Under the pieces are notes generated by a model that searched no databases, was not told the origin of the DNA, and saw nothing but the letters and a program-made list of their open reading frames with translations. A stretch of DNA of 64,000 bases from Gemmatimonadota bacterium. Lineage in GTDB: Bacteria; Gemmatimonadota; Gemmatimonadetes; Longimicrobiales; Gaopeijiaceae. Location of the stretch: the NCBI GenBank assembly GCA_003248075.1, contig QJYK01000207.1, positions 4,603 to 68,602 of the forward strand, read 5' to 3'. Made by a program: the position numbers and the translations under genes. Of this stretch, positions 6,005-49,819 are shown in pieces. Position 1 is the first letter of the stretch, and each line of letters begins with the position of its first letter.

Positions 6005-6040
6005 GGCTCTGGCGGGGCGGTCAGGTGATCCGGTTTCGGA

Positions 6041-6982: not shown

Positions 6983-7021
6983 AGTACGACCGTCACCGCC
7001 CCGGAGCGACGTCGAGGGCCG

Positions 7022-11569: not shown

Positions 11570-11633
11570 CCGACCGACCCCGAAGCTGGCGGGCAGGCCG
11601 GCTCCCACACCGCGGAGCCGGCCGCCCCCACGG

Positions 11634-12725: not shown

Positions 12726-12795
12726 GGTGGATGGCGAAGGAGTCGACGACAAAGGCGGTGAAGCTAGAGGCAGCCCGTCCGTGCGCAATCCGTGG

Positions 12796-13974
12796 CTAGC
12801 GTGAGGACACCCACTGCCGAGCGAGCTCGACCACGTGGTCCACGTCGGACGCGTCGTTATAGACCCCGATCGACATGCGTAGCACGCCCTTGCGGACAGA
12901 CAAGCGCACACCGCCGTCCGTGAGATGGCGGTAGAGGTCCGCGAGCGCGGGGTCGTCCACCGTGTCGTGGTGGCCCTCGCCCGCACGGCCCACGGCCACG
13001 ATGTGCGCGAGATGCTGTCCGGGTGGCCCGCCGACGACCGGCAGACCGAGCCGGAGGAGGCCCTCGGCCAGCCGTGCCGCCAGACCCCGCACGTGCTCCT
13101 CGACCCGACCGATGCCGATCTCGTGAAGGAGGTCGAGTGCGGTCGCGGCGGCGCGCGCCCCCAGATAGTTGAAGTTGCCCAGGTCGAACCGTCGCGCGCC
13201 GGCCGCGTACGGAAGCGCGCCGTCGCTTCGCGCGGTCTCTCCCGACTCGGTGCCGAGATCCATCCCGTAGCGGGCGACGTGGGACGGTCGGAGCGCCTCG
13301 GCAACCTCCCTCCGCACGTACAGGAACCCCAGGCCGTACAAGGACAGGAGTGCCTTCTGCGTCGCGACCGCCAGGGCGTCCACACCCAGGTCCTCGACGT
13401 CGGTACGGATGGCCCCCACGGACTGGGCCGCGTCCACCAGGACGAGCGCGCCACGCGCGCGTGCCCCATCGGACACGGCGCGCACGTCGGTTCGGAATCC
13501 CGGCGAGAACGAGACGTGCGGGACCGTGACCACCCGCGTGCGTCGGTCGATCGCTTCGAGGATCGACCCCACGTCGATCGTGCCCCCGGTCGGTGGCACG
13601 GCCCGCACTTCGATTCCGCGCGTGGCCCGCAGGTTGTACCAGAGGAAGACGTTGTTGGGGTGCTCGACCTCGGGACAGATGACCACGTTGTCTCCCCGTT
13701 CCCACGGGAGGCTCGAGGCGAACAGGTTGAGGCCCTCCGACACGTTCTTGGTCACCGCCACCTCGTCGGCGGACGCGCCCAGGAGGGACGCCAGTCGGGA
13801 CCGGGCCCGCTCCACGTGTCCCTGGAAGTCGGCCTTGTCGCCCGAACCCATCACCCGCTCCCTCAGGTGCGCCTGGGCGGCCTCGGCGACGGGGGTGGGG
13901 ACGAGCCCGCGCAGCGCGACGTCCAGGTAGACCTGACCCTGGACGCCTGGAAAGAGCGCGCGGATCTCGTTCAC
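12796..13974 (-). CDS. class V aminotransferase / cysteine-desulfurase-like PLP enzyme
   Basis: 392 aa. 'VYLDVA...', 'VTVPHVSFSPG', 'LVLVDAAQSVGAI..DV..LGVDALAVATQKALL' (PLP-Lys context). GTG start overlaps the upstream stop (GTGA). Confidence 0.85.
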   Translation of the reverse strand: MNEIRALFPGVQGQVYLDVALRGLVPTPVAEAAQAHLRERVMGSGDKADFQGHVERARSRLASLLGASADEVAVTKNVSEGLNLFASSLPWERGDNVVICPEVEHPNNVFLWYNLRATRGIEVRAVPPTGGTIDVGSILEAIDRRTRVVTVPHVSFSPGFRTDVRAVSDGARARGALVLVDAAQSVGAIRTDVEDLGVDALAVATQKALLSLYGLGFLYVRREVAEALRPSHVARYGMDLGTESGETARSDGALPYAAGARRFDLGNFNYLGARAAATALDLLHEIGIGRVEEHVRGLAARLAEGLLRLGLPVVGGPPGQHLAHIVAVGRAGEGHHDTVDDPALADLYRHLTDGGVRLSVRKGVLRMSIGVYNDASDVDHVVELARQWVSSR

Positions 13975-15163
13975 CGGTGCGGGTCCCCGCGCATCGCCCC
14001 CTCGGATCGAGCCACCAGGATGGTGCCCACCATGTCCCCCATCACGTTCACGGTCGTGATGCCCATGTCGACCAATCGGTAGATGCCGCCCACGATCGCA
14101 GCGAGCTCCAGGGGGAGCCCCATCGCCTGGATGAGAATGAGGGAGACGACGAATCCTCCCGCCGGGATCCCCCCCGAGCCCGCAGAGAGGCCAGCTCTCC
14201 GGGTCCGAGATCGACGCCCGACGCCTGCGCCGTGAAGAGCACCACGGTCATGAGCAGGATCGCGGTGCCGTCCTTGTTCACCTGGGCGCCCAGGGGCAGC
14301 GTGAACGAGTAGACGGGCCGCGGCAGTCGGAGCCCTTCGGCGACCTCGAGCGCGACCGACAGCGAGGCCAACGAGGATGTCGTCGCCGCCGTGGTGGCCC
14401 ACAGCGGCCCCGTGCGCTGGAGAAAAGGCAGGGGGCGCCAGCCCACGACGCGAAGGAGGGTGAGGTAGAGGGTGACCATGACGAGCTGCGCACCCCACAC
14501 ACCGCCCACGAAGCGCGCCATGGACCCGAAGAGCTCCGCTCCGTAACGGCCCACGGTCACCGCCATCAGCGCGCCGATCCCGTACGGCGCGACTCCCAGG
14601 ATCAGGTCGACCAACCTCCTGAAGAGGTCCGCCAGGTCCGCGTAGAGCTGGCGGAGCCGGTCCCGCGGTCCCTCGGGCAGACGGAGCGTCGCCAGGCCGA
14701 CGATCGCGGCCACGACCACGATCTGAGCGACGTTTCCGTCCGCGAAGGCGCGAAAGACGTTCGAGGGCACGAGGTCGAGCAGGACGTCGGAGAAGGACGG
14801 GACCGCGGCCACGTCACCTCCGAGCTGGGCGCCCGTGGTCATACCCTGACCGGGCCGCAGGAGACCGGCGGTCGCAAGCCCGAGGCACAAGGCGATCACC
14901 GTCGTGACCAGGTAGAAGCCGAGGATCTTGGCCGCCAGCCGCCCGAGGGTTCCCACGTCGGTGAGGGCCGTCAGCCCGGCGAGGAGGTTGGCGAAGACCA
15001 GCGGCAGCGCGGCGAGCATGAGGAGGCGGATGAACAGTTCACCCACGGGCTCGATGGGGACGACGCGAGCGCCGAGCGCGGCACCGAGCCCGGCACCGGC
15101 CACCATGCCGATGAGGATCCGCGTGCCGAGACCGAGCCGACGGGGGAAGAAGTGTTCCGTCAT
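13971..15163 (-). pseudogene. dicarboxylate/amino acid:cation symporter (DAACS, GltP/DctA-like) interrupted by a frameshift near 14185-14200
   Basis: N-terminal about 320 aa are in ORF 14048..15163 up to '...FTAQASGVDLGPGELASL'. The conserved C-terminus 'SAGSGGIPAGGFVVSLILIQAMGLPLELAAIVGGIYRLVDMGITTVNVMGDMVGTILVA' is in the frame of ORF 13971..14498. Confidence 0.7.
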
Positions 15164-15207
15164 CGGAAGAACTTGCGCGGCGCCGGACGCGCGCGCGAGA
15201 GTGCCCC

Positions 15208-15708
15208 ATGGACCTCCGGCTGCGCCCTCTCGTGGCGATCCTCGACGTGAACACGCGGCTGTTCCGGAACTGTCTTCGCGACGTCGACGAAGAGGGTGCG
15301 CTCACGCGCATCGACGCGCGCACCAACCACCTGTCGTTCCTCGCCTGCCACCTGGTGGGCGCCCGTGCCTACCTGGCAGGTGCCTTGGGGGGCGATGGAT
15401 CCGACCCGTTCGCCCACCTGACGGGCGATGCGCGGACCATCGAGGAGGTTCCCCGGTTCCCGTCGGTAGCCGAGGTGCTCGAAGCCTGGGAGGCCGTGAC
15501 GGCGCGGCTCATGGACCGCATGCGGCGGCTGGGCCGGGCCGAGCTGGACGCCGAGGCGCCCGCACGCTTTCCGGTCGACGACCCCACCGTGCTCGGAATG
15601 CTGGCATTCCTCATGCAGCACGACGCCTACCACGTCGGCCAGATGGCCCTCCTGCGGAAGCACGTCGGCCTCGGGGCCATGGAGTACGGTGAACCGGAGG
15701 AACGATGA
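15208..15708 (+). CDS. DinB-family protein
   Basis: 166 aa. Four-helix DinB_2-like pattern with His residues 'LACHLVGAR' and 'FLMQHDAYHVGQMALL'. Confidence 0.8.
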   Translation: MDLRLRPLVAILDVNTRLFRNCLRDVDEEGALTRIDARTNHLSFLACHLVGARAYLAGALGGDGSDPFAHLTGDARTIEEVPRFPSVAEVLEAWEAVTARLMDRMRRLGRAELDAEAPARFPVDDPTVLGMLAFLMQHDAYHVGQMALLRKHVGLGAMEYGEPEER

Positions 15709-37643: not shown

Positions 37644-37723
37644 CAGCGGATGAAAGGGGGTGTGGGACCCCTCGGGGATCGCGCCGGGTAGTGGATCCCG
37701 ACGTCCCTCGAACCCGAAAGGCC

Positions 37724-38233
37724 ATGACGAAGCACAGCCTCTGGATCGCTGCCCTTCTCTGCCCGCTCCTCGCCGCGTGTGGCAGCGCCGACGCCTCCCA
37801 GGGAGCAGGCTCGGGAAGCGCGCCCCTCGCCGACGTCGCGGCCGCGCCCCAAGGGCTCCCCCCGGTGCTCGTCTACAAGACGCAGGGATGTGGATGCTGC
37901 AACGGGTGGGTCGAGCACCTGCGCGCCGCGGGCTACGAGGTCGACGCGCGCAACGTCACGGACCTCATGGCCGTCAAGCTGGATGCGGGCGTGCCAGCCG
38001 ACCTGTCTTCCTGCCACACCGCGCTCATCGACGGCTACGTGGTCGAGGGACACGTCCCCGCCGACATCATCGAACGGCTCCTGGCCGAACGGCCGGAGAT
38101 CGCGGGGATCTCGGCGCCGGGCATGCCCGTCGGCTCGCCCGGCATGGAGGGGCCCGGAGCCAAGCCGTACCAGGTGTACGCCTTCGACCGGCAGGGTGGG
38201 CGCCGCGTCTTCGCCGAAGTCGACCCGCGCTGA
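37724..38233 (+). CDS. DUF411 / CopG-like periplasmic metal (copper)-binding protein
   Basis: ATG 37724. Lipoprotein signal 'LLCPLLAACGS', 'VYKTQGCGCCNGWVEHLRAAGYEV', 'SCHTALIDGYVVEGHVPADII', 'GMPVGSPGME'. Listed ORF 37220..38233 is over-extended. Confidence 0.85.
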   Translation: MTKHSLWIAALLCPLLAACGSADASQGAGSGSAPLADVAAAPQGLPPVLVYKTQGCGCCNGWVEHLRAAGYEVDARNVTDLMAVKLDAGVPADLSSCHTALIDGYVVEGHVPADIIERLLAERPEIAGISAPGMPVGSPGMEGPGAKPYQVYAFDRQGGRRVFAEVDPR

Positions 38234-38250
38234 ACGATCGACCGGGCCCC

Positions 38251-38907
38251 TCACATCTCCTTGAGGAGCCCGACCCGCAGAGCGAAGCGGACCAGCTCGG
38301 AGCGGTGGTTCAGCCCGAGCTTGTCCATGATCCGTGAGCGGTAGGTGTCGACCGTCTTCGGGGAGATGAAAAGCTTCTTGCCGATCTCCCGCGACGAGTA
38401 GCCCTCGGCGGTGAGCGCAAGGACTTCCTGCTCGCGGGTGCTCAGGTCGTGCAGCCCTGCCTGGTCCTCATTCTCGGCCGACTTGTACCGTTGGAGCAGC
38501 AGGGTCGTCGCCTTCGGTGGCAGGAACACTTCCCCCCGTGCCACGACCTTCAGCGCCTCGATGAGGTCGGTGTCCGCGCTGGTCTTGGTCAGGTAGCCAC
38601 TGGCGCCGGCCTCCACGACCGGCACCAGATACTCCTCCTCGGCGTGCACGGTCAGGACCAGGACCTTCGTGTCGAACCCGAGTGCCGCGATGCGCCGGGT
38701 CGCCTCCAGCCCGTTGGACCCGGGCATGGACAGGTCCATGACCACGACGTCCGGCTTGAGCTCGCGGACGCGGTCCACCGCTTCGTCCCCCGACGAGGCC
38801 TCCCCCACCACCTCGAGCCGACTCTCGGCCTCCAAGAGGGCCTTGATCCCCGCCCGGAACATGGCGTGATCGTCGACCAGGAGGATCTTGGTGCCCCCCT
38901 CAGACAT
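38251..38907 (-). CDS. NarL/LuxR-family response regulator
   Basis: ATG 38907. 'KILLVDDHAMFRAGIKALL...DVVVMDLSMPG' receiver and 'LSTREQEVLALTAEGYSSREIGKKLFISPKTVDTYRSRIMDKLG' HTH. The start overlaps the kinase stop by 8 nt. Confidence 0.9.
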   Translation of the reverse strand: MSEGGTKILLVDDHAMFRAGIKALLEAESRLEVVGEASSGDEAVDRVRELKPDVVVMDLSMPGSNGLEATRRIAALGFDTKVLVLTVHAEEEYLVPVVEAGASGYLTKTSADTDLIEALKVVARGEVFLPPKATTLLLQRYKSAENEDQAGLHDLSTREQEVLALTAEGYSSREIGKKLFISPKTVDTYRSRIMDKLGLNHRSELVRFALRVGLLKEM

Positions 38908-39976
38908 GTCCCTGCTCCTTGATAGATCCGGGTAGCTCGACCCGGACGCGGGTTCCCTGGCCCGGCACGCTCTCGATCGCGACGCGACCACCGAACATCA
39001 CGGCACGCTCCTGCATTCCCAATAGTCCCAGCCCCCCGCCTCGCTCGGTGGCATCTCGCACCAGGAAGCCACGCCCCCGGTCCTCCACGACCGCGACCAC
39101 CGCCTCGTCCTCGACGCCGAGGCGAAGACGAGCCCGCCGGACGCCCGCGTGCCGGAGGACGTTGCTGAGAGATTCCTGGACGATCCGATAGAGGGCGAGC
39201 CGCCCCTCGGCGTCCAACATGTGATCGACCCCCTCGATCTCCGCGTCCACCTCCAAGTTCGCGCCAACACGCAGATCGCGCAGGTGCGCCTGCAGCGCCG
39301 TGGCCAGCCCCACCTCGTCCAGAGCAGGGGGTCGCAGGCCCCGCGCGATGCGCCGGACGCCCTCCGCGGCCTCCTTGAGCTGCTCACGGATCGCGTCCAC
39401 CTCCACCCGCTGATCCGCGTCGTCTTCGACGCGCGCCAGGAGCCGGAGCCGCAGGATGAGCGTCGCCAGGCGCTGCGCCGTGTCGTCGTGCAACTCCCGG
39501 GCGATACGTCGGCGCTCCTCCTCGGCGGACCGGAGTGCCGCCTCCGAGAAGTCGCGCAGGCGGATCCGTTCGCCGACGTCCCGGACCGTGCAGATCACGT
39601 AACCGCGGTCGTCGCCGGGGACCGGCGCGAGGCTGATCTCGGCGATCAGCTCGGTCCCGTCCTTGCGCCGTCCCCGGAGCCGAAGGTCGACCCCCATCGG
39701 GCGGGGCCTGGGGTCATGCCCGAACGACTCCCGCAAGGCCCCGTGCCGCCCTCGCACCGACTCCGGGACCAGGATCTCGACGGGCTGGCCGAGCAGTTCC
39801 TCACGCACATATCCGAACAACGCCTCCGCCTGCGGGTTGAGCTCGGTGATGGTACCGTCGCCGGCCACCACGAGAATCCCGTCCGGAGAGGCTTCGAAGA
39901 CCGTCCTGTATTCCTCCGCGCTGAGCACCTCGAACGCTGCTCCTCTCTTGTCGCGAGGTGTGGAGAAAAACCCCAC
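38900..39976 (-). CDS. PAS-domain sensor histidine kinase (HisKA_3 / HATPase_c)
   Basis: 'YRTVFEASPDGILVVAGDGTITELNPQAEALFGYVREELLGQPV' PAS, 'ARELHDDTAQRLA' H-box, 'VEDRGRGF...GGLGLLGMQERA'. The start is uncertain: I chose GTG 39976, whereas the longest ORF reaches 40186 through low-GC, non-protein-like sequence. Confidence 0.8.
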   Translation of the reverse strand: MGFFSTPRDKRGAAFEVLSAEEYRTVFEASPDGILVVAGDGTITELNPQAEALFGYVREELLGQPVEILVPESVRGRHGALRESFGHDPRPRPMGVDLRLRGRRKDGTELIAEISLAPVPGDDRGYVICTVRDVGERIRLRDFSEAALRSAEEERRRIARELHDDTAQRLATLILRLRLLARVEDDADQRVEVDAIREQLKEAAEGVRRIARGLRPPALDEVGLATALQAHLRDLRVGANLEVDAEIEGVDHMLDAEGRLALYRIVQESLSNVLRHAGVRRARLRLGVEDEAVVAVVEDRGRGFLVRDATERGGGLGLLGMQERAVMFGGRVAIESVPGQGTRVRVELPGSIKEQGHV

Positions 39977-40179
39977 ATCGGGGTCGGCGCATTTCCCACC
40001 GGGCCAGGGGCGTTGTACCCGACAGCCTACCGAAGGGGGCCGCGCAAGAATGTATTCGCGTACCGGCTCAAGGCGAGCCCCCACGGTCGCATCCCCGGTT
40101 TTCCGGCCGCCAGCGGCCGAGTTCATAGATGCCGTATACCCGAGATCCGGACGTCGCTCGGTAGGAGGGACCTCCAGCC

Positions 40180-41304
40180 ATGCCACGCCAGCCCGCGGCT
40201 CCAGCGCCTCCCGGCGGGTCCGCCGGTTGGATGGACAGGCTCGCGCGGTATTCCCTGGTCCAGCGCTTCCTGGGCCTGACGCTGTTCTGGAAGATCGTCA
40301 CCGCCAACACGGCCCTCATCGCGGGAACCGCAGCCGTCGTACGGGCCTCGACGTCGCCGATCGGCATGGAGGGCCTCACCCTGTTCGGAATCCTGGCCCT
40401 CGCGATCGCCGTCGCCGCCAACGCCCTCCTCGTCCGGGCCGCGTTATCCCCCCTCGGAGCGTTGGAGCGCGCGGCCCGCCGGGTGTCGAGCGGCTCCACG
40501 ACCGTGCGCGCCGAGCTCTCGCCGCTCGCCGATCGTGAGCTGAGTCGGATGACGGAGGTCTTCAACGGCATGCTCGATGCCCTCGAGGAGAACCGCGTGC
40601 GGCAGAGGGAGCTGGCGCGGCGCGTGCTCGAGTCAGAGGAGCGGGAGCGCGAGCGGATCGCGCACGAGCTCTTCTCGGGGACGGCGCAGACGCTTGCGGC
40701 AGTCCTGCTGCGCCTTCGCATCGCTGAGCGCTCGCTCTCGAACGGCCACTCCGAGGCGCTCTCGGAGATCCGGGACGGGATCGTGGATGCCCTCGAGGAG
40801 GTGCGCGGCGTGGCGCGCCGCCTGCGCCCGCCGGAGCTCGACGAGCTCGGGGTCAGGGTGGCTCTGGAGGCCCACGCCCGCGCCATGTCGGAGGGCCGCG
40901 CGGTCGAGCTGCGCATCACGGGGGACATCCCCGAGCTGTCCCGCGAGTCGGCGCTCGCCCTTTTTCGCATCGTGCAGGAAGCCATCAACAACGCGGTCCT
41001 CCATGCCGAAGCCGACCTGGTCAGGGTGTCGTTCGTCCGGGAGGGCGACAGCGTCGTGGCCGAAGTGGTCGACGACGGCCGCGGCTTCGAGCCGGATCTG
41101 GCTCTGGAGCACGCAGGGGAGAGCCTGGGACTCTTCGGAATGCACGAGCGAGCCGGTTACGTGCGCGGTGAGCTCTCCCTCGAGTCCGGGCCGGGGCGCG
41201 GCACACGCGTTCGGGCGCGTATCCCGCTCGACGGTCCGACCGGCGTCCCGCACTACGACGAGATCGCGGATCGGCTCGTCCACGGGTTGATGGACGCGGG
41301 CTAG
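40180..41304 (+). CDS. membrane sensor histidine kinase (HAMP, HisKA_3, HATPase_c)
   Basis: GGAGGG SD. Two TM segments, HAMP-like 'ELSRMTEVFNGMLDAL', 'AHELFSGTAQTLAA' H-box, 'VDDGRGFE...LGLFGMHERA'. Confidence 0.85.
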   Translation: MPRQPAAPAPPGGSAGWMDRLARYSLVQRFLGLTLFWKIVTANTALIAGTAAVVRASTSPIGMEGLTLFGILALAIAVAANALLVRAALSPLGALERAARRVSSGSTTVRAELSPLADRELSRMTEVFNGMLDALEENRVRQRELARRVLESEERERERIAHELFSGTAQTLAAVLLRLRIAERSLSNGHSEALSEIRDGIVDALEEVRGVARRLRPPELDELGVRVALEAHARAMSEGRAVELRITGDIPELSRESALALFRIVQEAINNAVLHAEADLVRVSFVREGDSVVAEVVDDGRGFEPDLALEHAGESLGLFGMHERAGYVRGELSLESGPGRGTRVRARIPLDGPTGVPHYDEIADRLVHGLMDAG

Positions 41305-41400
41305 AAGCGTGCGCGCCTTCCCGATCACCCTTCTTGCCCAAATGCTGCATCCGTCATCGTTCGCGCGGCGCTGAGCCCGAGGCGCCGAGGAGGCACTGGC

Positions 41401-42294
41401 GTGTACCGAACCATCATGGTCCCGCTCGACGGCTCGACCTTCGCCGAGTCGGCCTTGCCGCTGGCGATCTCCGTAGCGCGCCGAACCGGGGCGGGCCTTC
41501 AACTCGTGGCCGTGCATGAGCCGATCCCGTCGTTCGCCTACGACGAATGGGAGAGCGCATCCCGGGAATGGACGACCGATTATCTACGCCGCACGACGGA
41601 GCGCATCGGGGAAGCCGGTCCGGTCGCCGGCTCGGAGCTCCGCACGGGTCCCGTGGTGGAAGCACTCGAGGCGCAGGCCGACGCCTGCGACGCGAGTCTC
41701 GTCGTGATGGCGACGCACGGAAGGGGCCTCCTGTCCCGTGCGTGGCTCGGAAGCGTCGCCGACGCATTCGTGCGGCACACCGATCGACCGGTCCTGCTGG
41801 TTCGTCCCGAGGACGATGCACGGGCGGACATCTCCGAGGACCGGACGTTCCGGAACATCCTGATCCCGCTGGACGGCTCCGCGCTCTCCGAGGATGCCAA
41901 GGACCACGCGGTGGAGCTGGGGTCCCGCTTCGACGCCGGTTATCACCTGGTTCGCGTGGTCCCCTTCCCGGCCGATGTGGCCTCCTCGTACCTCCCCTAC
42001 ACCGTCCAGGTCAACCAGGGAATCGTGGAAGAGGCCAAGCTCGCCGCGGCCGACTACCTGGAGGATCAGGCCGAGTCGTTGCGAACCGCAGGACACCGCG
42101 TCACCACGAGCATCCAGGTAGACGCCCAGCCCGGCCACGGGATTCTCCGTGCCGCGGAGGCCGAAGCCTGCGACCTCATCGCCATGGCGACGCACGGTCG
42201 CTCGGGGTTGACCCGTGCCCTCCTCGGAAGCGCCTCCGACAAGGTCCTTCGTGGCACGCACCTCCCACTCCTCCTGCATCGACCCTCGAACTGA
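41401..42294 (+). CDS. tandem universal stress protein (two Usp domains)
   Basis: 297 aa with GTG start after GAGGAGG. 'IMVPLDGSTFAESAL...LVVMATHGRGLLSRAWLGSVA' and 'ILIPLDGSALSEDA...LIAMATHGRSGLTRALLGSASDKVLR'. Confidence 0.88.
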   Translation: MYRTIMVPLDGSTFAESALPLAISVARRTGAGLQLVAVHEPIPSFAYDEWESASREWTTDYLRRTTERIGEAGPVAGSELRTGPVVEALEAQADACDASLVVMATHGRGLLSRAWLGSVADAFVRHTDRPVLLVRPEDDARADISEDRTFRNILIPLDGSALSEDAKDHAVELGSRFDAGYHLVRVVPFPADVASSYLPYTVQVNQGIVEEAKLAAADYLEDQAESLRTAGHRVTTSIQVDAQPGHGILRAAEAEACDLIAMATHGRSGLTRALLGSASDKVLRGTHLPLLLHRPSN

Positions 42295-42370
42295 GACGGA
42301 GCGGTAGGCCAGGTTTGTCCCGGACCCCCCGGGCGGCTATTCATCCGGTCGCCCGAGGTCACGCCCGCTC

Positions 42371-43690
42371 GTGACCGGCCATCCCACAGCCTTCCGGAGC
42401 ACCGACGTGCGCGCTCACGAACCTGCCAGGCCTGCCGCTCGGACCGTCCCCTGGCTGGCCCTCGCCTTCCTGGCCGCGCCGCTGTCCGGTCAGGACCGAC
42501 CCCAGACGCAGTCCGACGACTACACGCTTTACGAGCTCCAGGCGCCGGGGAGCAGCGCTTTCCGGATCTTCTACGACGTGTCCGCAACCACCGCCGGAGC
42601 CCTCTTCTACTACAACACCATCCGGGCGGGCGCCGAGGAGGAGGTCCACGGGGTCACGGACCTGCACACGGGCGACGCACTGGCATGGGAGATCGTCGAT
42701 GGCGCCCACGCACGCGCTCACGGGCACCCGCGGGCGAGCCTGGAAAGTCGCTACATCAAGGTCACGCTCGCCCGCCCCGTGCCGGAAGGCGGCCAGGCCC
42801 GGGTCCGCATCGACAAGACGTACATCGACGGGAACAGCTATCACGTGGACGGCCGCGACCTGGTGTTCGAGCGATCCCTCGGAATCCGGCGCAACGCCGT
42901 CGTCCTACCGCCTGGCTACGAGCTGGTGGAGGCGAACTACCCCGTGCAGGTCGACACCGAGACGGACGGACGCGTGCGTCTGAGCTTCATGAGCCCGGGC
43001 CCCGGGGCGATCGACTTGCGCGTGCGCGGTCGATCTCTGCCCGCCGGACGTCGTCCCCGAGCACGACCCGAGGAAGCGTCCGAGGTTCCCACCGGTGGTG
43101 GGGGATCGCCGCAGCGGGCCCGCGTGGGCTGGACGTTCCCGGAGCGCGCCTACCAGGACCGGGACATCACCTACTTCCTCGCGCAGCCCGAGACGCATGC
43201 GTTCCGCCTCTTCCACGACTACACCGAATCCCGTCCGGGAGTGGACCGCTACGTCAACGTCGTGCGGGCCGGAAGCTCGGCGTCCGATCCGGAGGCCTGG
43301 AACCTGGACACGGGGGCGCGGCTCGAGGTGGAGCAGCTGAGGGGCGAAGAAATCGCGAGACGTGGTATCGACATCGGGGGCACGCCCACCGCGGAATCGG
43401 AGGTGGTGGTGATCTGGTTCGACCCGGTCCCCGCGGGCGCATCGACGCGGCTCCGGATCTGGGAGACGTACACCGACCCCGGCCGCTACGTGCTCGCGGG
43501 AGACGAGCTGGTCTGGGACCGGGGGTTCGGCAGAGCCCGGAACACGGTCGTGCTCCCGGAGGGCTGGTTCCTGGTGGCGAACGCCATCCCGGGTGTGGTG
43601 GACACGACCGAGGACGGTCGCATCCGGATTCGCTACGTGAACCCCCGCCCCGACGAAATCCAGGTGTTCATCCGGGCACAGCGGCGCTAG
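42371..43690 (+). CDS. secreted protein with internal tandem duplication of a roughly 175-aa domain, unknown function
   Basis: Signal 'VPWLALAFLAAPLSGQD'. The halves align: 'YTLYELQAPGSSAFRIFYDVS' / 'ITYFLAQPETHAFRLFHDYT' and 'LVFERSLGIRRNAVVLPPGYELVEAN.PVQVDTETDGRVRLSF' / 'LVWDRGFGRARNTVVLPEGWFLVANAIPGVVDTTEDGRIRIRY'. Confidence 0.7.
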   Translation: MTGHPTAFRSTDVRAHEPARPAARTVPWLALAFLAAPLSGQDRPQTQSDDYTLYELQAPGSSAFRIFYDVSATTAGALFYYNTIRAGAEEEVHGVTDLHTGDALAWEIVDGAHARAHGHPRASLESRYIKVTLARPVPEGGQARVRIDKTYIDGNSYHVDGRDLVFERSLGIRRNAVVLPPGYELVEANYPVQVDTETDGRVRLSFMSPGPGAIDLRVRGRSLPAGRRPRARPEEASEVPTGGGGSPQRARVGWTFPERAYQDRDITYFLAQPETHAFRLFHDYTESRPGVDRYVNVVRAGSSASDPEAWNLDTGARLEVEQLRGEEIARRGIDIGGTPTAESEVVVIWFDPVPAGASTRLRIWETYTDPGRYVLAGDELVWDRGFGRARNTVVLPEGWFLVANAIPGVVDTTEDGRIRIRYVNPRPDEIQVFIRAQRR

Positions 43691-43753: not shown

Positions 43754-44266
43754 TCAGCGCACCTCCAGCGACCGGCCTGCCGTGTCGAGCGTGACGAGCA
43801 CGACCCGCCCGGAGATGGCCGTCACGGTCCCGCGCCACTCGAGCGAGGGGGCTCCCGGCGGGAGCTGGGCACCTCCGCCCGAAAGCGGGAGGTAGGCGAC
43901 GTCCAGGGCCCGTGGACCGGGGTCGAGCCCCAGCTCCCGGAAGACATACATGGGCCGGTCGGCCCGCGCACCCGACGCGACCACGGTGTCGCGGATGAGC
44001 TCCCGCCCGTCCACCGCGACGGTCAGGCTGTACGGAAGCGTCCCGCCCGAGCACACGGTGGGGGTGCGCATGTGGGTCGGAAGCCTCGCCAGCTCCTCCT
44101 CCGTCCGGGGTCGGCAGGACGCCACCGAAACGGGGTCGAGCCGCCACGACAGGCGCAGCGAAGACTCGTCGGGTCCGCGCAGCGACAGGGGCACTCGGGA
44201 CAGGAACGCGGTCCCGGCCACCAGGCCGAGAGCCACCGCGACACCGACGGGCGTGCGAGCCGTCAT
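43754..44266 (-). CDS. membrane-anchored protein, unknown function, translationally coupled to the cytochrome b fusion gene
   Basis: ATG 44266 overlaps the upstream stop (ATGA). 'MTARTPVGVAVALGLVAGTAFL' anchor. No family recognised. Confidence 0.6.
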   Translation of the reverse strand: MTARTPVGVAVALGLVAGTAFLSRVPLSLRGPDESSLRLSWRLDPVSVASCRPRTEEELARLPTHMRTPTVCSGGTLPYSLTVAVDGRELIRDTVVASGARADRPMYVFRELGLDPGPRALDVAYLPLSGGGAQLPPGAPSLEWRGTVTAISGRVVLVTLDTAGRSLEVR

Positions 44267-45897
44267 CCGACCTCCGCGGCGGATGCCTCCGGCACCTCGC
44301 ACTCGGCCTCCACGTCGATGCGCTCCTCGGCGGTGGCCCTGGCGAGTCTCTTCACCTCCGCTCGGAACCCGTTCAGGGCCGCGGCCACGCGCAGAGGCTC
44401 AGCTTCGGCGGCGTACACAATGCGTACTCGCGCCCGATCCACGCGCTCCTTGAGCTCGGCCTCCCTCCCCTGGTGGACGCGGGCCTCCAGGTAGCCCACG
44501 CCCTCGCGGTTCCAGCAGTCCCGCGGCGGACATGCGACCAGAAGGACCCCGCCGGCGCCCGCGCGCACCAGGTACTCGATGACCGAGGTGTGGACGCTGC
44601 CCGAGCACGATACGGGCAGGACCGGCGCGTCGAGGAAGCGTTCCTCACGCGCTGCGCCGCCCGACCCGCGATCGCAAGCTACCAGCACGATGTCGTCCGC
44701 CCCAGGGCGGACGTGGTCGAGGAACGCGCGCACGCGCTCCAGCTGATCCCGCCCCGTGCGTCCCGGGGGTCCGACGCCCATGGGTGCACACGAACCCGCG
44801 CAGATGCCGCAGCTCACGCACAGCCCCGGGTCCACACGGGCCACCCAACCGTCGCGACCGTCGGAGCGCCGTACCATGGCGATCGCCTCGTACGGACAAT
44901 CGTGGTAGCACTGCTCACACCCCGTGCAGAAGCGCTCGTTGACGACCGATGCAGGCGGCCGGCGCCGGCGCGTCGGACGCGTCAGGAGCGGGACAGCGGC
45001 AAGGATTCCGACCACGAGCAACCCCAGGAGCCACACCCACCCGGCACCGAGCGGCCGGGTGAACGGCAGCCAGAACCCGTACAGGACGTCGAAGGGCACC
45101 CGTCCCGGGAGCGCGAGCAGGTCGGCCTCCGGCGCCACCCCGATGGGCCACGCCACGGAAGCCACCAGGAGCAGGGCCACTGCGCCCCGCAGCAGGGCGC
45201 GGGGGGGGAGCAGCGACGCCCTCGCGAGGCGGGAGACATGGATCCACAGCAAAAGCGCGACGCCCACGGGAAGCGCGATGTGGGCGAAGAGATTCAGGAA
45301 GAAGAACGCCGGGGGCATCGGCCGCTCTCCCACGAACGCGCGGGAGATCGGCTCGGAGAAGATCGGAAGCGCATCGAGCCATCGCGCGCCTTCGGCGGCG
45401 AGCAGGTGCGCCTGCTCATCCCAGACCATCACGTATCCGGTCCAGCCGCAGAGCAGGAAGACGCAAAAGAGCGCGACGCCCGAGACCCACGCGAGGGCTC
45501 GCGGACCCCAGGCGCGTCCCTGGGCGAACATCCTCACGGCGTGCACCAGCGCGGCCACGAGCGCCACCGCGGACGCATAGCGGTGTAGCGTTCGGATCCA
45601 GCGTCCGGCCCAAACCTGCGCGGTGATCCCGGCTACCGAGGTGTGGGGGCTACCGATCCGGTAGAAGACCAACAGGTACAGGCCGCTCACGAGGAGCACC
45701 ACGAAGCTGGTGACCACCAGGGCGCCCGAGTGGTAGAGCGGATTGAGCCGCCACCCATAGAGGGCGTTCATCCATCCGTCGAGGCGCGCCAGCGTGCGTC
45801 GGCTACCCCCGCGGAGCAGGGTGATGGTGCGGTGCATCGAACGGGGTTCGGGAGAATCTGTCGGGTCCGCTGATTCTTGCGCGGGCCTATTTATCAT
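44263..45897 (-). CDS. fusion protein: dihaem cytochrome b (N-terminal) + 2x[4Fe-4S] ferredoxin + MvhD/FlpD-like domain
   Basis: His pairs 14 residues apart in two helices (TLHRY..LVHAV; FAHIA..WIHVS). 'CTGCEQCYHDCP' and 'CVSCGICAGSCAP'. 'IVLVACDRGSGG...VLPVSCSGSVHTSVIEYLVRAGAGGVLLVACPPRDCW'. The start may be ATG 45837 instead of 45897. Confidence 0.85.
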   Translation of the reverse strand: MINRPAQESADPTDSPEPRSMHRTITLLRGGSRRTLARLDGWMNALYGWRLNPLYHSGALVVTSFVVLLVSGLYLLVFYRIGSPHTSVAGITAQVWAGRWIRTLHRYASAVALVAALVHAVRMFAQGRAWGPRALAWVSGVALFCVFLLCGWTGYVMVWDEQAHLLAAEGARWLDALPIFSEPISRAFVGERPMPPAFFFLNLFAHIALPVGVALLLWIHVSRLARASLLPPRALLRGAVALLLVASVAWPIGVAPEADLLALPGRVPFDVLYGFWLPFTRPLGAGWVWLLGLLVVGILAAVPLLTRPTRRRRPPASVVNERFCTGCEQCYHDCPYEAIAMVRRSDGRDGWVARVDPGLCVSCGICAGSCAPMGVGPPGRTGRDQLERVRAFLDHVRPGADDIVLVACDRGSGGAAREERFLDAPVLPVSCSGSVHTSVIEYLVRAGAGGVLLVACPPRDCWNREGVGYLEARVHQGREAELKERVDRARVRIVYAAEAEPLRVAAALNGFRAEVKRLARATAEERIDVEAECEVPEASAAEVG

Positions 45898-45898
45898 A

Positions 45899-45910
45899 TC
45901 ATCATGATGA
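45899..45910. promoter_or_regulatory. perfect 12-bp palindrome TCATCATGATGA in an AT-rich island: candidate Rrf2 operator in a divergent promoter region
   Basis: 45887-45923 reads ctatttatcatatcatcatgatgaaatcaatctatcc in an otherwise very GC-rich window. It lies between divergent genes 44263..45897 and 45966..46409. Confidence 0.5.
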
Positions 45911-45965
45911 AATCAATCTATCCCCGGAGAGCCACGCGGCTCAAGCCATACAAGGGAGCACGGTC

Positions 45966-46409
45966 CTGATCCTCTCGCAGACCTCGATCTACGCGCTGAA
46001 GGCGGTCCACTATCTGGCGAAGGAAGAGCGCGCTCGACCGGTTCCCGTCGACGAGATGTCGGAGGCGCTCGGCATCCCCCGGAACTATCTGTCCAAGATC
46101 CTCCACGCGCTCGCCCGCGGGCGTCTGCTGGAGTCGACAAGAGGCCCGCGGGGCGGCTTCACGCTTGCCCGAGAGCCGGCTTCGATCGTGCTCCAGGAGG
46201 TGGTCGAGGTGTTCGACGATATCGGCAGCACCTCTCGATGCCTCCTTGGACGACCGCAGTGCAGCGATGGCAACCCCTGTCCGGTCCACGGGCGTTGGAA
46301 GGAGCTCTCGGGCTCCATGATGGCTTTTTTCCGCGACACCACCGTGCTCATGGACTCGGCCGTTCCCGAGCCGCCGAGCCCAGCAACCCGAGGAGGTCGT
46401 GATGGATGA
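45966..46409 (+). CDS. Rrf2-family (IscR/NsrR-like) Fe-S transcriptional regulator; apparent CTG start
   Basis: Listed ORF starts only at 46056 (MSEALGIPRNYLSKIL...). The same frame upstream encodes 'LILSQTSIYALKAVHYLAKEERARPVPVDE', which aligns with the Rrf2 N-terminus. There is no ATG/GTG/TTG in frame. AGGGAG (45953-45958) lies 7 nt before CTG 45966. Cluster ligands 'CLLGRPQCSDGNPCPVH'. Confidence 0.8.
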   Translation: MILSQTSIYALKAVHYLAKEERARPVPVDEMSEALGIPRNYLSKILHALARGRLLESTRGPRGGFTLAREPASIVLQEVVEVFDDIGSTSRCLLGRPQCSDGNPCPVHGRWKELSGSMMAFFRDTTVLMDSAVPEPPSPATRGGRDG

Positions 46410-46572
46410 TCCTCAGGCAGCCCCCCAGGGAGACACCCCGGTCCCCTTCCTCCAACGGATGTACGATCGCCCGTTCCTGCTCCTCGGGCTCGGGCTCACC
46501 GTCATGTTGGTCCTCTTCACCTTCTGGGGCCTATGGGAGATCGTCCGCCTTCCCACGGCCCCCCTGCCCTGA
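46402..46572 (+). CDS. 56-aa single-TM protein (possible oxidase subunit IIa analogue), below ORF-track cut-off
   Basis: My translation: GGAGG, 6 nt, then ATG 46402 gives MDDPQAAPQGDTPVPFLQRMYDRPFLLLGLGLTVMLVLFTFWGLWEIVRLPTAPLP. Overlaps the Rrf2 stop by 8 nt. The listed 98-aa ORF 46406..46702 is in another frame and is Arg/Ser/Pro-rich. Confidence 0.5.
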   Translation: MDDPQAAPQGDTPVPFLQRMYDRPFLLLGLGLTVMLVLFTFWGLWEIVRLPTAPLP

Positions 46573-46587
46573 CCCGGAGGGGCGACG

Positions 46588-47184
46588 ATGTACACGACCG
46601 GCATCACACCGCAGAAGGGTGTCTGGTGGAAGCCCGCTCACAAGAGCGAGAAGGTCTGGTTCACGATCGCGTTCGCATGGTGCATGGTGCTCTTCGCCAT
46701 GATGCCCTTCTGGCACCTGCGGGGAGGCCAGAACCCCTCGGGAACCCGCTCACGGGTCGACCCGGCGGCCTACCGCACCCGCGTTCAGGAGTTCGTCCAG
46801 CAGTATCAGGTCGCGACCGACAACGGCATCCCCGTGGTCGCGCCCCCGGCGGGAAGCGACATCTATCTGCAGGGGCAGATGTGGATGTGGCTGCCCGTGC
46901 TCCAGCTGGAGGAGGGGTCGGAGTACACGCTCCACCTGTCCTCGGTGGACGTGAACCACGGCTTCAACCTCTACCCCTTCAACATCAACTTCCAGGTCGT
47001 GCCGGGTTACGACTACGCCCTGCGCGTCACCCCCACCGAGGCCGGTGACTTCCGAGTCGTCTGCAACGAGTTCTGCGGAGTCCTCCACCACACCATGGTA
47101 GGCAGGATCATCGTCCGCGAGCGGGGCAGCTCGGCGGTTGCCGCGCTCCTCGGCTCGGACGTCGACAAGGGAGGCGACCGATGA
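46588..47184 (+). CDS. heme-copper oxidase subunit II, B-type (ba3-like), CuA site intact
   Basis: 198 aa. One TM. Cupredoxin 'LHLSSVDVNHGFNL' and 'FRVVCNEFCGVLHHTMVGRIIV' (H...CxExCGxxHxxM). Confidence 0.88.
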   Translation: MYTTGITPQKGVWWKPAHKSEKVWFTIAFAWCMVLFAMMPFWHLRGGQNPSGTRSRVDPAAYRTRVQEFVQQYQVATDNGIPVVAPPAGSDIYLQGQMWMWLPVLQLEEGSEYTLHLSSVDVNHGFNLYPFNINFQVVPGYDYALRVTPTEAGDFRVVCNEFCGVLHHTMVGRIIVRERGSSAVAALLGSDVDKGGDR

Positions 47185-48926
47185 GCACCACCACCGGCGC
47201 CCCCGCATCGGGCGCTTTCCGTGTCTGCCCCACCACGGGGCTCAAGGTCCACCGGGATGCCGACGCGCTCATCAAGGCGAACGCGGTAGTCGCCACCGTC
47301 GCGCTCCTGGTCGGCGGGTTGGCAGCGATCCTCGTGCTGCTCACGCGCTGGCAGGCGGTCCACCTCCTGGACGAGGTCTGGTTCTACCGCGTCCTGACCA
47401 TCCACGGGATGAACATGCTCATCTTCTTCATCCTGTTCTTCGAGATGGCGGTCCTGTACTTCGCTTCCGCGGTCCTGCTGAACTCCCGGGTGGCGGCACC
47501 CCGGGTCGGCTGGGTGGCGTTCGCGCTCATGGTCCTGGGCGCGGGCATGGTCGAGTGGACCATGTTTGCGGGAAAGGCGGACGTCCTCTTCACCTCGTAC
47601 GTGCCCCTGCGGGCCCATCCCCTCTTCTACCTGGGTGTGATCCTCTTCGCAGTCGGCGCCCTGGTCGTGGTGAGCATCTTCTTCGCGACCCTCGTCGTGG
47701 CGAAGAACGAGCGCACGTACGAGGGGTCGGTCCCGCTCGTCACGTTCGGCGCAATCACCGCCGCCATCATCGCGGTGATCACGCTGGTGCACGGCGCGGC
47801 GATCTACATCCCTACCTTCCTGTGGTCGTTGGACCTCATGCCCATGGACGCCGAGGTCTACCGCATGGTGTGGTGGGGGCTCGGCCATTCCTCGCAGCAG
47901 ATCAACGTGGCCGCCATGGTGGCGATCTGGTACCTGCTCGGCGCGCTCACCGTAGGTGCCGTCGTGGTGAACGAGAAGATCAGCCGCACGGCCTTCGTGC
48001 TCTACATCCTCTTCATCTCGATGGCGTCGGCCCACCACCTCCTGGTGGATCCCGGCTTCGGCCCGGCCTGGAAGATCGTCAACACGTCGTATTTCATGTA
48101 CATGGCGGTGCTCGCCTCCATGTTGCACGGCTTCACCGTGCCCGCAGGCGTGGAGCTCGGCATGCGGCTCCGGGGGTTCACGCAGGGCGTGTTCGGGTGG
48201 CTGCGGAGGGCGCCCTGGGGTGATCCCGGGTTCAGCGCCCTGGTCCTCTCGGTGGTTGTCTTCGGCTTCGTCGGAGGCATCACCGGCGTGACCTTCGGAA
48301 CCGAGCAGATCAACATCATCGCGCACAACACGCTGCGGATCCCCGGGCACTTTCACGCGACGGTGGTCAGCGGCACCGCGATGGCCTTCATGGGCATCAC
48401 CTATTACGTGATCCCGCTGATCTTCCGTAAGCGCGTGGCCTTCTACGGGATGGCACGGTGGCAGCCCTACGTGTTCGCGGTCGGCATGCTCATCTTCTCC
48501 ATGGCGATGACATTCGCCGGTACGTTCGGCGTTCCGCGCCGCCACTGGGACATCACGTTCACCAACGCGCCGTTCGACGTGGCTTACTCGCCGGCCGTCG
48601 ACCTCATGATCGGCGTGATGGCGGTCGGAGGACTCCTCGCGGCGCTGGGAGGCGGGATGTACATCCTGGTCACCGTGTGGTCGGTCTTCTTCGGCAAGCC
48701 CTTGGGTGAGGACTGCACAGACGCGGCGCTGGCAGGCTCGGTGCCCCCGGGCGTGTATGCACGCCCGTTCCTCGAGCTCCCCGAGGAGGATGTGGCAGTG
48801 GAGGTCCACGGAAGGCTCGGGACCATGCCCGGCACGATGGTCCTCGTGCTCGTGTTCCTGGCGGCTTTCGTGCTCTACTACTTCGCGAACTGGAAGCTGC
48901 TCTCCTTCGTCTGGCGGGTCGGTTGA
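47181..48926 (+). CDS. heme-copper oxidase subunit I, B-type-like, lacking the active-site Tyr (candidate NO reductase-type enzyme)
   Basis: 581 aa with ATGA overlap with subunit II. Six canonical His are present ('LTIHGMNMLIFF', 'WWGLGH', 'MASAHHLLV', 'RIPGHFHATVV'), but helix VI reads GHSSQQ, not GHPxVY. The 598-aa minus ORF 47013..48809 is an antisense shadow. Confidence 0.9.
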   Translation: MSTTTGAPASGAFRVCPTTGLKVHRDADALIKANAVVATVALLVGGLAAILVLLTRWQAVHLLDEVWFYRVLTIHGMNMLIFFILFFEMAVLYFASAVLLNSRVAAPRVGWVAFALMVLGAGMVEWTMFAGKADVLFTSYVPLRAHPLFYLGVILFAVGALVVVSIFFATLVVAKNERTYEGSVPLVTFGAITAAIIAVITLVHGAAIYIPTFLWSLDLMPMDAEVYRMVWWGLGHSSQQINVAAMVAIWYLLGALTVGAVVVNEKISRTAFVLYILFISMASAHHLLVDPGFGPAWKIVNTSYFMYMAVLASMLHGFTVPAGVELGMRLRGFTQGVFGWLRRAPWGDPGFSALVLSVVVFGFVGGITGVTFGTEQINIIAHNTLRIPGHFHATVVSGTAMAFMGITYYVIPLIFRKRVAFYGMARWQPYVFAVGMLIFSMAMTFAGTFGVPRRHWDITFTNAPFDVAYSPAVDLMIGVMAVGGLLAALGGGMYILVTVWSVFFGKPLGEDCTDAALAGSVPPGVYARPFLELPEEDVAVEVHGRLGTMPGTMVLVLVFLAAFVLYYFANWKLLSFVWRVG

Positions 48927-49819
48927 CCAGCACGTTGACCAGGGCCGAGCGGTGGGCCCTCACGGCCCTGGGGTTTCTGGTGGCGGTCACAGCGGCGTGG
49001 TGGGCGCTCGCCCTGTGGCCGCTGCCGGACGCGCCGCCGGCGTGGCTGGAGCGGACCCGCGCCGTATGCTTCAACGCGGGCCCGACGGGTCTCCCCGACC
49101 CGTCGGGGTGGATCCTGTTGGTGGGACAGCCGCTGGGGATGCTCGGGACTCTGCTGGCCGGGTGGAAGACCGACGTCCTGTCCGCGCTGCGCGTGCTCGG
49201 GCGGTCGTGGTCAGGGCGTTCCGCCATGGGGACGGTGGCGATCGCGGTCGTGTTCGGCGCGGGGGCGGCCGCTACTCGCGTCGCCACGGCCCGCCAGCCG
49301 TCGGCCGGGCTGACAGATGCGGGGGACGTCCCGCCCACCTACCCGCGCCTCGACCGCCCGATTCCCGACATGTCGGGGCTGGTCGACCAGAAGGGACGGC
49401 CCTTCGAGCCGAGTGCCCTGAGTGGCCGTGCGGCTCTGATCACCTTCGGGTACGGTCATTGCGAGACCGTATGCCCGCTCCTGGTGCGCTCGGCCCTGCA
49501 GGTGCGGGACGGGCTCCTCGACCAGCGCCCCCTGACCGTGGTGACGATCACGCTCGACCCGTGGCGGGACACGCCGTCGCGCCTGCGGGCGATCGCGGAC
49601 ACGTGGGGGCTGGGCGCCGGGGACGTTCTCCTCGGCGGCGACGTCGACGCGGTCGAGGCGGCCCTGGACGCCTGGGACGTGCCACACACCCGGGACGAGC
49701 GGACCGGGGAAGTGATCCATCCCGCCCTGACCTATCTCGTCGAACCGGACGGGACGGTCGCCTACGCGTCGACGGGGGGCCCGAGCCAGCTCCGAGCGCT
49801 AGCGCTCCGGCTCAGGTAG
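48923..49819 (+). CDS. SCO1/SenC-type copper chaperone fused to an N-terminal three-TM domain
   Basis: TTG start overlapping the subunit I stop. Three TM-like segments in residues 1-125. SCO fold 'ALITFGYGHCETVCPLL' (CxxxC) and 'GEVIHPALTYLVEPDG' (conserved His). Confidence 0.8.
   Translation: MTSTLTRAERWALTALGFLVAVTAAWWALALWPLPDAPPAWLERTRAVCFNAGPTGLPDPSGWILLVGQPLGMLGTLLAGWKTDVLSALRVLGRSWSGRSAMGTVAIAVVFGAGAAATRVATARQPSAGLTDAGDVPPTYPRLDRPIPDMSGLVDQKGRPFEPSALSGRAALITFGYGHCETVCPLLVRSALQVRDGLLDQRPLTVVTITLDPWRDTPSRLRAIADTWGLGAGDVLLGGDVDAVEAALDAWDVPHTRDERTGEVIHPALTYLVEPDGTVAYASTGGPSQLRALALRLR

Follow-up and report, generated by a model that had tools for sequence, protein, structure and literature searches.

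A number of reductases are connected to the quinone pool by membrane subunits that are joined to a cytoplasm-facing polyferredoxin, as in the NapGH, NosGH, NosR, NarI–NarH, DsrMK and QmoC-type systems. NosGH and NapGH have been described as quinone-oxidising modules. The membrane parts of this group of systems have NapH/NosR or NarI/HdrE-type folds, and none of them is known to join a bc-type cytochrome b to an MvhD domain. For the haem-copper nitric oxide (NO) reductases of the eNOR type, which in some sediments are reported to exceed all other NO reductases in abundance and transcription, the literature that we searched contains no description of the physiological donor or of the assembly pathway. 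Here we analyse a 64,000-nucleotide stretch of a Gemmatimonadota genome (GenBank assembly GCA_003248075.1, contig QJYK01000207.1, positions 4,603 to 68,602; hereafter, the window), in which a gene that fuses a dihaem cytochrome b to a 2x[4Fe–4S] ferredoxin and an MvhD/FlpD-like domain lies beside the genes of a haem-copper enzyme that is likely to be an eNOR-type NO reductase. The fusion is a near-obligatory gene partner of this type of reductase, and we consider it probable that it forms a dedicated redox module of the NO-reductase gene cluster.

The fusion gene occupies positions 44263..45837 on the minus strand, as defined by its open reading frame (ORF), a public gene call, Pfam and an AlphaFold2 model. 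An earlier note, made from the sequence alone, described it as one polypeptide of 544 amino acids. It is indeed a single gene in a single frame, which stays open as far as 45897 (44263..45897, minus strand, 544 codons in the ORF list), but the true start is most likely Met21 (45837), which gives a protein of 524 rather than 544 residues. We adopted this start because it is the one chosen by the public gene call on a matching metagenomic contig (JGI 3300027985; product of 524 amino acids), because the homologues are mostly ~520–530 amino acids long and because the upstream ATG (45895–45897) falls within a conserved palindromic operator. Residue numbers below refer to the 524-residue protein; Pfam and NCBIfam positions are flagged where the 544-residue frame applies.

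Pfam matches to the fusion protein, read against the curated gathering cut-offs, bear out the three domains that had been proposed: Cytochrome_B (PF00033; 49.1 bits against a cut-off of 27.2, residues 51–224), Fer4 and Fer4_7 (30.0 against 21.1 and 30.1 against 27, residues 318–371) and FlpD (PF02662; 49.4 against 22.3, residues 426–518), all positions being in the 544-residue frame. PF00033 was also matched by all 51 of the fused relatives that were scanned. A family profile built from 48 members and compared with solved structures in the PDB retrieved cytochrome b6 (E = 1e-26), bc1 cytochrome b, the C-terminal ferredoxin domain of HdrA and MvhD (E about 5e-10 to 1e-9). On the same 48-sequence alignment, AlphaFold2 returned a single confident model of the fusion, with a predicted local distance difference test (pLDDT) score of 90.1 and a predicted template modelling (pTM) score of 0.87. 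Conservation was counted on an alignment of 485 family members.

The haem-copper genes of the window are on the plus strand. They encode a 56-amino-acid protein with a single transmembrane helix (46402..46572, identified from its translation), a cupredoxin subunit II (46588..47184; Pfam COX2, NCBIfam CoxB-type) with a complete CuA motif, CNEFCGVLHHTM, a subunit I that is a Tyr-less, B-family-related haem-copper oxidoreductase (47181..48926; Pfam COX1, E = 2e-60) and an SCO1/SenC copper chaperone (48923..49819; Pfam PF02630, E = 5e-24). The 56-residue protein is probably the small, third subunit of the enzyme; it occupies the cluster position equivalent to that of a 46-residue peptide that was co-purified with the CuA-NOR of Bacillus. 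Subunit I is closest to the B-family ba3 oxidases (E about 1e-45), and in the alignment the cross-linked Tyr237 of ba3 falls on Gln (GHSSQQIN here, GHPIVYFW in ba3) and S309 of ba3 falls on Ser. The motif GH[SPA][SA]QQIN is invariant in 73 loci, the alphaproteobacterial ones included.

According to published diagnostics, the Tyr position is taken by Gln in eNOR, by Asn in sNOR and the Bacillus CuA-NOR (bNOR) and by Asp in gNOR, and the K-channel residue S309 is retained in eNOR and bNOR and lost in sNOR. Because Gln replaces Tyr, the CuA site is kept and Ser309 is retained, the neighbouring enzyme is likely to be an eNOR-type NO reductase rather than the oxidase that the earlier note took it for. 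With Gln at H+4 and Ser kept, the enzyme does not show the features of sNOR, although an Asn two residues further on leaves a shifted alignment possible. The eNOR of Rhodothermus marinus uses a derivative of haem a and reduces NO but not O2, and the ‘cytochrome a1-like’ protein of Magnetospirillum has been placed in the eNOR family. Similar gene sets have been described for the sNOR of ammonia oxidisers (norSY–senC–orf1; NE0684–NE0681 in Nitrosomonas europaea, with orf1 = NE0681) and for the CuA-NOR cluster of Bacillus, in which a small peptide, subunit II, subunit I and SenC/SCO1 are likewise accompanied by a membrane protein (the cbaD product of Bacillus has six helices). Orf1 (NE0681) and cbaD were compared with the fusion by cluster position and description only, and sNOR and bNOR carry Asn where the present enzyme carries Gln.

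The link between fusion and enzyme was followed in both directions. Starting from the fusion, we scanned 85 loci, namely the window contig, four loci found by the exact protein and 80 species genomes (mostly Gemmatimonadota, with some Acidobacteriota, Myxococcota and Burkholderiales and one metagenome-assembled genome (MAG) labelled ‘Deltaproteobacteria’). The proteins of the window recur there as follows: the 170-residue partner described below in 83 loci, subunit II-like proteins in 78, the 56-residue peptide in 77, subunit I in 75, SCO1 in 66 and an Rrf2-family regulator in 50. In the ten loci that lack subunit I, the contig breaks off no more than ~1.4 kb upstream of the fusion gene, so subunit I is present in all assessable loci (75/75). 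Starting from the enzyme, we searched metagenome contigs with the back-translated subunit I motif W-G/A-x-G-H-x-x-Q-Q-I-N and obtained 120 loci. The fusion was found in 59 of them, 58 were too short to judge and 3 had no fusion despite at least 5 kb of downstream sequence; it is therefore present in 59 of 62 assessable loci, and in 51 of the 59 it is on the strand of subunit I. Of these three, L187 is of the divergent type and stops at the Rrf2 gene, so that it can hardly count as assessable. The synteny with a Tyr-less haem-copper operon, on which the earlier note had staked its interpretation, is thus kept in essentially every assessable relative. In two loci (L201 and L131) the fusion sits a few kilobases from subunit I.

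The usual gene order is small peptide, subunit II, subunit I, (haem O synthase, ctaB), SCO1, fusion and partner. It is found in a Methylomirabilota MAG (L209), on a plasmid of Defluviimonas sp. (L087) and on the chromosome of Pararhizobium sp. IMCC3301 (L210), in the last two of which a hemerythrin gene follows (11116–11520 and 11106–11513, respectively). Hemerythrin-like di-iron proteins include NO-stress Fe–S repair proteins. The alphaproteobacterial order resembles that of Magnetospirillum, in which, we presume, mcaII–mcaI are followed by the haem O synthase gene. In a Bdellovibrionaceae MAG (L208), a gene for a cd1 nitrite reductase, nirS (Cytochrom_C and Cytochrom_D1; 11309–13270), lies directly downstream of the fused gene, which places this cluster in a denitrification context. 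One further contig (L086) carries downstream (5166–6876) a 472-residue ORF with a weak COX1 match and a 108-residue cytochrome c, which may be extra periplasm-side electron-transfer components in that lineage.

The family is large. A search with the window protein found more than 2,500 clusters at 90% identity with a matching architecture, a profile of the long (fused) relatives found 1,291 clusters and a profile of two proteobacterial members found 4,426, with only Alphaproteobacteria among the best 120 of those 4,426 matches; among representatives at 50% identity, 401 had E ≤ 1e-30. Among the carriers are complete chromosomes as well as a plasmid from an isolate, and the source contig was also recovered from independent samples. 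We therefore rejected a misassembly or frameshift artefact, the joining of two ORFs by an assembly error that the earlier note had raised against itself. An artefact, or alternatively an independent quinol:Fe–S oxidoreductase that is unrelated to the neighbouring enzyme, has a negligible probability in our view, given thousands of clusters with the fusion, a contig seen in independent samples and near-absolute synteny in both directions.

Every single domain of the fusion is already known, and the pairing of a membrane cytochrome b with Fe–S modules is of a known kind. New, in that it is absent from the literature searched, is the combination of a bc-type cytochrome b (helices A–F), a ferredoxin, an MvhD domain, an extra transmembrane helix and a periplasmic β-sandwich; the missing Rieske partner and the near-obligatory tie to eNOR-type clusters are also undescribed there. 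As the earlier note had supposed, no member of the family is characterised in that literature, in which the sole trace is one accession in an appendix table, where its domains are given as ‘cytochrome b6 / DMSOR_beta-like / FlpD’. Database names are generic (‘cytochrome b N-terminal domain-containing protein’, ‘hydrogenase iron-sulfur subunit’ and ‘ferredoxin’).

The membrane domain (residues 1–290; 44968..45837, minus strand) comprises an N-terminal amphipathic helix and six transmembrane helices, as indicated by PF00033, the PDB profile comparison and Foldseek. Hydropathy and the AlphaFold2 model agree on the six helices, the last of which is followed by the basic TRPTRRRRPP patch, as had been read from the sequence. 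They correspond to helices A–F of bc1 cytochrome b, that is, to b6 (PetB) together with the two leading helices of subunit IV (PetD). The histidine pairs H85/H99 and H186/H200, each exactly 14 residues apart as first noticed, are invariant or nearly so (482–485 of 485 members), and the predicted haem ligand sets are H85/H186 and H99/H200, four His on helices B and D as in b6 and bc1 cytochrome b. With Foldseek, 280–298 columns of the model align to most bc1 cytochrome b chains and ~175 columns to b6 (TM-score of 0.68–0.73 on the target), so the membrane domain exceeds a four-helix haem bundle. The best NCBIfam match of the cytochrome b domain is ExtP of a Geobacter selenite/tellurite operon (E = 2e-25, residues 55–226). 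ExtP, too, is short and b6-like and lacks the C-terminal half of cytochrome b; in contrast to the fusion, it is a stand-alone protein of ~205 amino acids in another operon context, and the score of the match is 89.6 against a cut-off of 290.

Several further elements resemble the quinol-oxidising side of bc complexes. The AlphaFold2 model contains two short cd helices, and the b6-like W-D motif after helix C is kept in 483 of 485 members. A profile of residues 205–300 matches subunit IV of b6f (E = 0.008) and helices E–F of bc1 cytochrome b. In this region the family motif P-x-D-(W/V)-F-Y aligns with PEWY of the ef loop at marginal significance (E = 0.008–0.2), with D250 on the PEWY Glu, and A-D-L-L aligns with the PADPF or PANPL motif that precedes PEWY. 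Of the 485 members, 474 have the ef-loop Asp; the next residue is Trp in 259 and Val, Leu or Ile in the clade of the window. The window protein (PFDVLYGFWLP) has Val where the PEWY-type motif has Trp. The fusion protein therefore appears to retain elements that build a Qo-type quinol pocket. By comparison with b6f and bc1, it lacks helices G and H, and Cys35 of b6, the haem cn ligand, is not conserved in the family in the PDB profile alignment. The position five residues past the inner-haem His is Ala rather than His; we take bovine H196 and H201 to be the comparison positions for the inner-haem His and the His of the n-side quinone site. No Rieske motif (CxHxGC...CxCH) occurs in any frame of the 64-kb window, there is no credible CxxCH ORF near the cluster and no Rieske protein or c-type or f-type cytochrome is encoded in the annotated clusters inspected. 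A canonical bc complex was rejected on these grounds: neither the window nor those clusters hold a Rieske or cytochrome c gene. The other differences from b6f and bc1, which have c1 or f beside the Rieske protein, are that the n-side of the fusion would be capped by an Fe–S domain instead of a Qi site and that the fusion is tied to a haem-copper NO reductase.

The Fe–S part is predicted to be cytoplasmic because it is located after helix 6 and the basic patch. Its first half is a 2x[4Fe–4S] ferredoxin domain (44722..44946, minus strand; Fer4 and Fer4_7), in which two CxxCxxCxxxC motifs at residues 304–314 and 340–350 provide the ligands C304/307/310/314 and C340/343/346/350. All eight Cys are kept in 484–485 of 485 members, and motifs, Pfam match and conservation together confirm the ferredoxin assignment. 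The second half is the MvhD/FlpD-like domain (44338..44700, minus strand; PF02662) with a putative [2Fe–2S] site formed by C388, C411, C436 and C441. The last three of these align with the CSG/GC/DC cysteines of the solved MvhD chains 9sw2_D and 5odc_D, with C388 lying upstream, which upholds the MvhD/FlpD signature that had been recognised; the four Cys are kept in 481, 483, 483 and 459 of 485 members, respectively. Residue 416 (window ~44590–44592), five past the second MvhD-type Cys, is His in 335 of 485 members and Pro in 128, and C441 is exchanged for Ala, Pro, Gly or Thr in 23 members. Given this variation, ligation of the [2Fe–2S] cluster may differ between subfamilies.

The order of 2x[4Fe–4S] and MvhD-type four-Cys domain is that of HdrA2 of Methanosarcina, and positions 559–774 of the NCBIfam HdrA2 model match residues 304–521 (E = 6e-18), far below the family cut-off. 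Unlike HdrA2 and MvhD systems, the fusion has no flavin-containing HdrA body, is membrane-bound and occurs in aerobic or denitrifying bacteria. No Hdr, heterodisulfide reductase or hydrogenase gene was found in any annotated neighbourhood inspected; the MvhD-like domain would work like an MvhD connector outside any Mvh/Hdr system.

How would such a protein serve the reductase? We tentatively favour, at somewhat less than an even chance, a role as the enzyme's own quinol-oxidising electron-input and activation module. Quinol would bind in the Qo-like pocket near the outer haem, and electrons would pass from the outer to the inner haem, on to the two [4Fe–4S] clusters in turn and then to the [2Fe–2S] cluster. 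The two haems b would span the membrane as in bc1, with the Fe–S domain where the Qi site would be, and the natural direction of electron flow would be that of the bc1 low-potential chain, from quinol through the outer and the inner haem, here to Fe–S. The path would make the protein a transmembrane wire that links the quinone pool, or the periplasmic face, with a cytoplasmic docking surface; the earlier suggestion that a single chain may wire the quinone pool to cytoplasmic clusters is strengthened by the apparent Qo-type motif. We favour electron input because periplasm-facing denitrification enzymes typically bring quinol-oxidising polyferredoxin modules (NapGH, NosGH and NosR), because the Qo-like elements are conserved and because a rare relative has an added cytochrome c domain, which points to electron transfer on the periplasmic side.

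The Qo-site elements that appear to be retained could also belong to a bifurcating, Rieske-less ‘mini-bc’, which would send one quinol electron to the NO branch, with its very high potential, through CuA, possibly by way of the β-sandwich partner, and the other through the two haems into the Fe–S chain to reduce a low-potential cytoplasmic acceptor. The Ala at the n-side quinone-site position with an Fe–S domain fused there, the use of MvhD-type domains as inter-protein connectors in Hdr/Mvh complexes and the tight link to an NO reductase are all consistent with bifurcation. However, no high-potential cofactor is evident in the partner and no gene for a cytoplasmic acceptor is conserved in the annotated clusters; bifurcation is the most speculative reading, and we think it unlikely. 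NO reduction is usually regarded as a non-energy-conserving step. If bifurcation were true, this step could yield denitrifiers low-potential reductant or additional charge separation.

The linear order of cofactors permits either direction, and electrons could instead be exported, with a cytoplasmic reductase docking on the MvhD-like domain and electrons flowing from Fe–S through the inner and outer haems to CuA or the partner, bypassing quinone. Two-haem cytochromes with a cytoplasmic donor domain are established (NOX, FRE and MsrQ-type), and eukaryotic cupric reductases of that design have been published. We nevertheless hold export to be distinctly improbable, as there is neither a flavin or NAD(P)H domain in the protein nor a conserved cytoplasmic partner gene in the cluster, and the conserved, putative Qo-type pocket would be left without a role.

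The fusion gene overlaps by four nucleotides (ATGA) the gene of a 170-amino-acid protein (43754..44266, minus strand), which is predicted to have one N-terminal transmembrane helix and a periplasmic β-sandwich. The coupling that had been noted is thus present, and the overlap is identical in five other loci (L003, L004, L005, L087 and L210). Described until now as a membrane-anchored unknown, the protein is membrane-anchored as stated, yet it is more than an unknown neighbour, being integral to the system. Most relatives with less than ~45% identity are 650–750 amino acids long, and their extra C-terminal part is the partner domain (blastp of the 170-residue protein against family representatives, E down to 3e-29 over the full length). 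The partner is fused to the C terminus of the fusion in this way in most other phyla, and by this Rosetta-stone argument the cytochrome b protein and the partner are one functional unit. The chain crosses the membrane once more after the cytoplasmic Fe–S part, so the partner domain is placed in the periplasm. The partner gene comes first, ahead of the fusion gene, in two metagenomic loci (L156, 7198–9194; L152, 9386–13184).

The AlphaFold2 model of the partner (pLDDT of 93.3) consists of one transmembrane helix and a β-sandwich, and its conserved residues are R38, C51, E58, P63, H65, M66, C72, Y79, D103 and P105. Foldseek against the PDB returned nothing significant for it, only generic immunoglobulin (Ig)-like and T-cell-receptor matches (best E = 0.018), and a Pfam scan at E ≤ 1 found no family for the domain, FixG_C included.

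In layout, the fusion and its partner also resemble CcoG (FixG), a cupric reductase and assembly factor of cbb3 oxidase, the physiological donor of which is unknown. By analogy, the module could be a maturation factor for copper (or haem) centres: electrons from quinol or a cytoplasmic donor would pass through the Fe–S chain and reduce Cu(II) to Cu(I), or keep the thiols of SCO1 or CuA reduced, for copper insertion, and the β-sandwich would be the counterpart of the CcoG Ig-like domain or a PCuAC-like copper handler. We regard maturation as the main rival and a real possibility, though one that falls short of being probable. CcoG combines membrane helices, two cytoplasmic [4Fe–4S] clusters and a periplasmic Ig-like C-terminal domain and is encoded just downstream of oxidase genes, and in one-strand clusters the present gene similarly follows haem O synthase and SCO1, after the structural genes of the haem-copper enzyme. 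The partner retains two Cys and a His-Met pair, copper-related genes are found nearby (CopD in L005; DUF411 in the window contig, L001, and in L005) and purified eNOR is active without the fusion module. The likeness to CcoG is architectural only, however. There is no detectable sequence kinship (no CcoG or FixG_C similarity at E ≤ 1 in the 52 members scanned), and CcoG has neither haems nor an MvhD domain and serves another enzyme family. A bc-type Qo pocket, if retained in full, and the extra MvhD-type cluster exceed the needs of a CcoG, and no conserved non-ligand Cys/His copper motif was seen in the cytoplasmic domain.

Several points weigh against the electron-input module that we favour, or against the identity of the reductase that it would serve. 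The gene stands after ctaB and SCO1, the usual site of maturation factors. Feeding a periplasmic CuA site needs no cytoplasmic Fe–S chain, and the partner, with just C, H-M and C, has no recognisable cofactor motif. Neither a Rieske protein nor a c-type cytochrome is encoded in the cluster or the window, so a bifurcating Qo-type oxidation would have no evident acceptor of high potential. Synteny and two aligned positions are the basis of the eNOR assignment. Finally, purified R. marinus eNOR is active with artificial donors and only haem As was reported in it; the fusion is therefore not an obligatory stoichiometric subunit there.

Whichever of these roles applies, the enzyme is accompanied by genes for a conserved two-protein module in nearly all of the lineages sampled (Gemmatimonadota, Acidobacteriota, Myxococcota, Bdellovibrionota, Methylomirabilota and Alphaproteobacteria). 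The module is a concrete candidate, open to test, for the supply of electrons or of reduced copper to an N2O-producing enzyme, and there are cultured carriers (Pararhizobium sp. IMCC3301, Defluviimonas salinarum, Limibaculum sp. FT325 and Marivita sp. S2033). It would also be a new use of the bc1/b6f cytochrome b scaffold, in which no Rieske protein takes part and Fe–S clusters stand in place of the Qi side.

Fusion and enzyme also appear to be regulated together. In the window, the fusion and partner genes diverge from those for Rrf2, the structural subunits and SCO1, and the divergent control region contains a palindromic operator, TTATCAT-N6-ATGAT(A/G)A (TTATCAT-N6-ATGATAA in the window; 45891..45910, no strand assigned), that is found at the equivalent place in nearly all Rrf2-containing loci. 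A GCAAG element (CTTGC at 45876–45880 on the plus strand) is conserved between the operator and the cytochrome b start codon. It is well supported by these motifs that in the window genome both transcription units share an Rrf2-controlled operator and are co-regulated. In most other phyla all genes of the cluster are on one strand, presumably as a single operon; Bdellovibrionota, Methylomirabilota and Alphaproteobacteria are examples. The conserved operator and the one-strand clusters both speak for the single regulon that had been suggested from the shared control region. The Rrf2-less loci have other palindromes at the operator position, TATGAC-N4-GTCATA in Acidobacteriota (L059, L062, L063, L065, L067, L075 and L079) and TTTCCCA...TGGGAAA in some Gemmatimonadaceae (L060, L071 and L078), a pattern that points to a takeover of the divergent promoter by other regulators.

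The Rrf2-family regulator of the window (45966..46409, plus strand; Pfam Rrf2, E = 9e-21; NCBIfam rrf2_super) has an in-frame N-terminal helix-turn-helix (HTH) and the protein cluster motif C-x6-C-x5-C..H. Upstream of the HTH there is no ATG, GTG or TTG (45951–46060, plus strand), so its start is probably the CTG at 45966. Relatives begin with GTG ATC CTC, and the window reads GTC CTG ATC CTC, an apparent 3-nucleotide insertion that is also present in an independent sample (L002). In the public gene call this gene is absent, and a 123-residue ORF on the opposite strand is called instead (L001, 1932–2303).

In one of the loci (L004), two inverted insertion sequence (IS) copies (HTH_Tnp_1 and rve; 5871–6997 and 14544–15670) flank the segment that parts Rrf2 and the small peptide from subunits II and I, and it looks as if an IS-mediated inversion split the reductase operon. 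Beyond the partner gene, the flank of the cluster in the window (~38250–42300 and 42371–43690) encodes a Usp protein, two HisKA_3 sensor kinases (one with PAS and one with HAMP) and a LuxR-type response regulator, together with the DUF411 gene (~37720–38230) and a 439-residue ORF without a Pfam match. The flank genes recur in a Longimicrobiales locus (L005, 10632–17119) and may form a linked region for the sensing of low oxygen or redox state.

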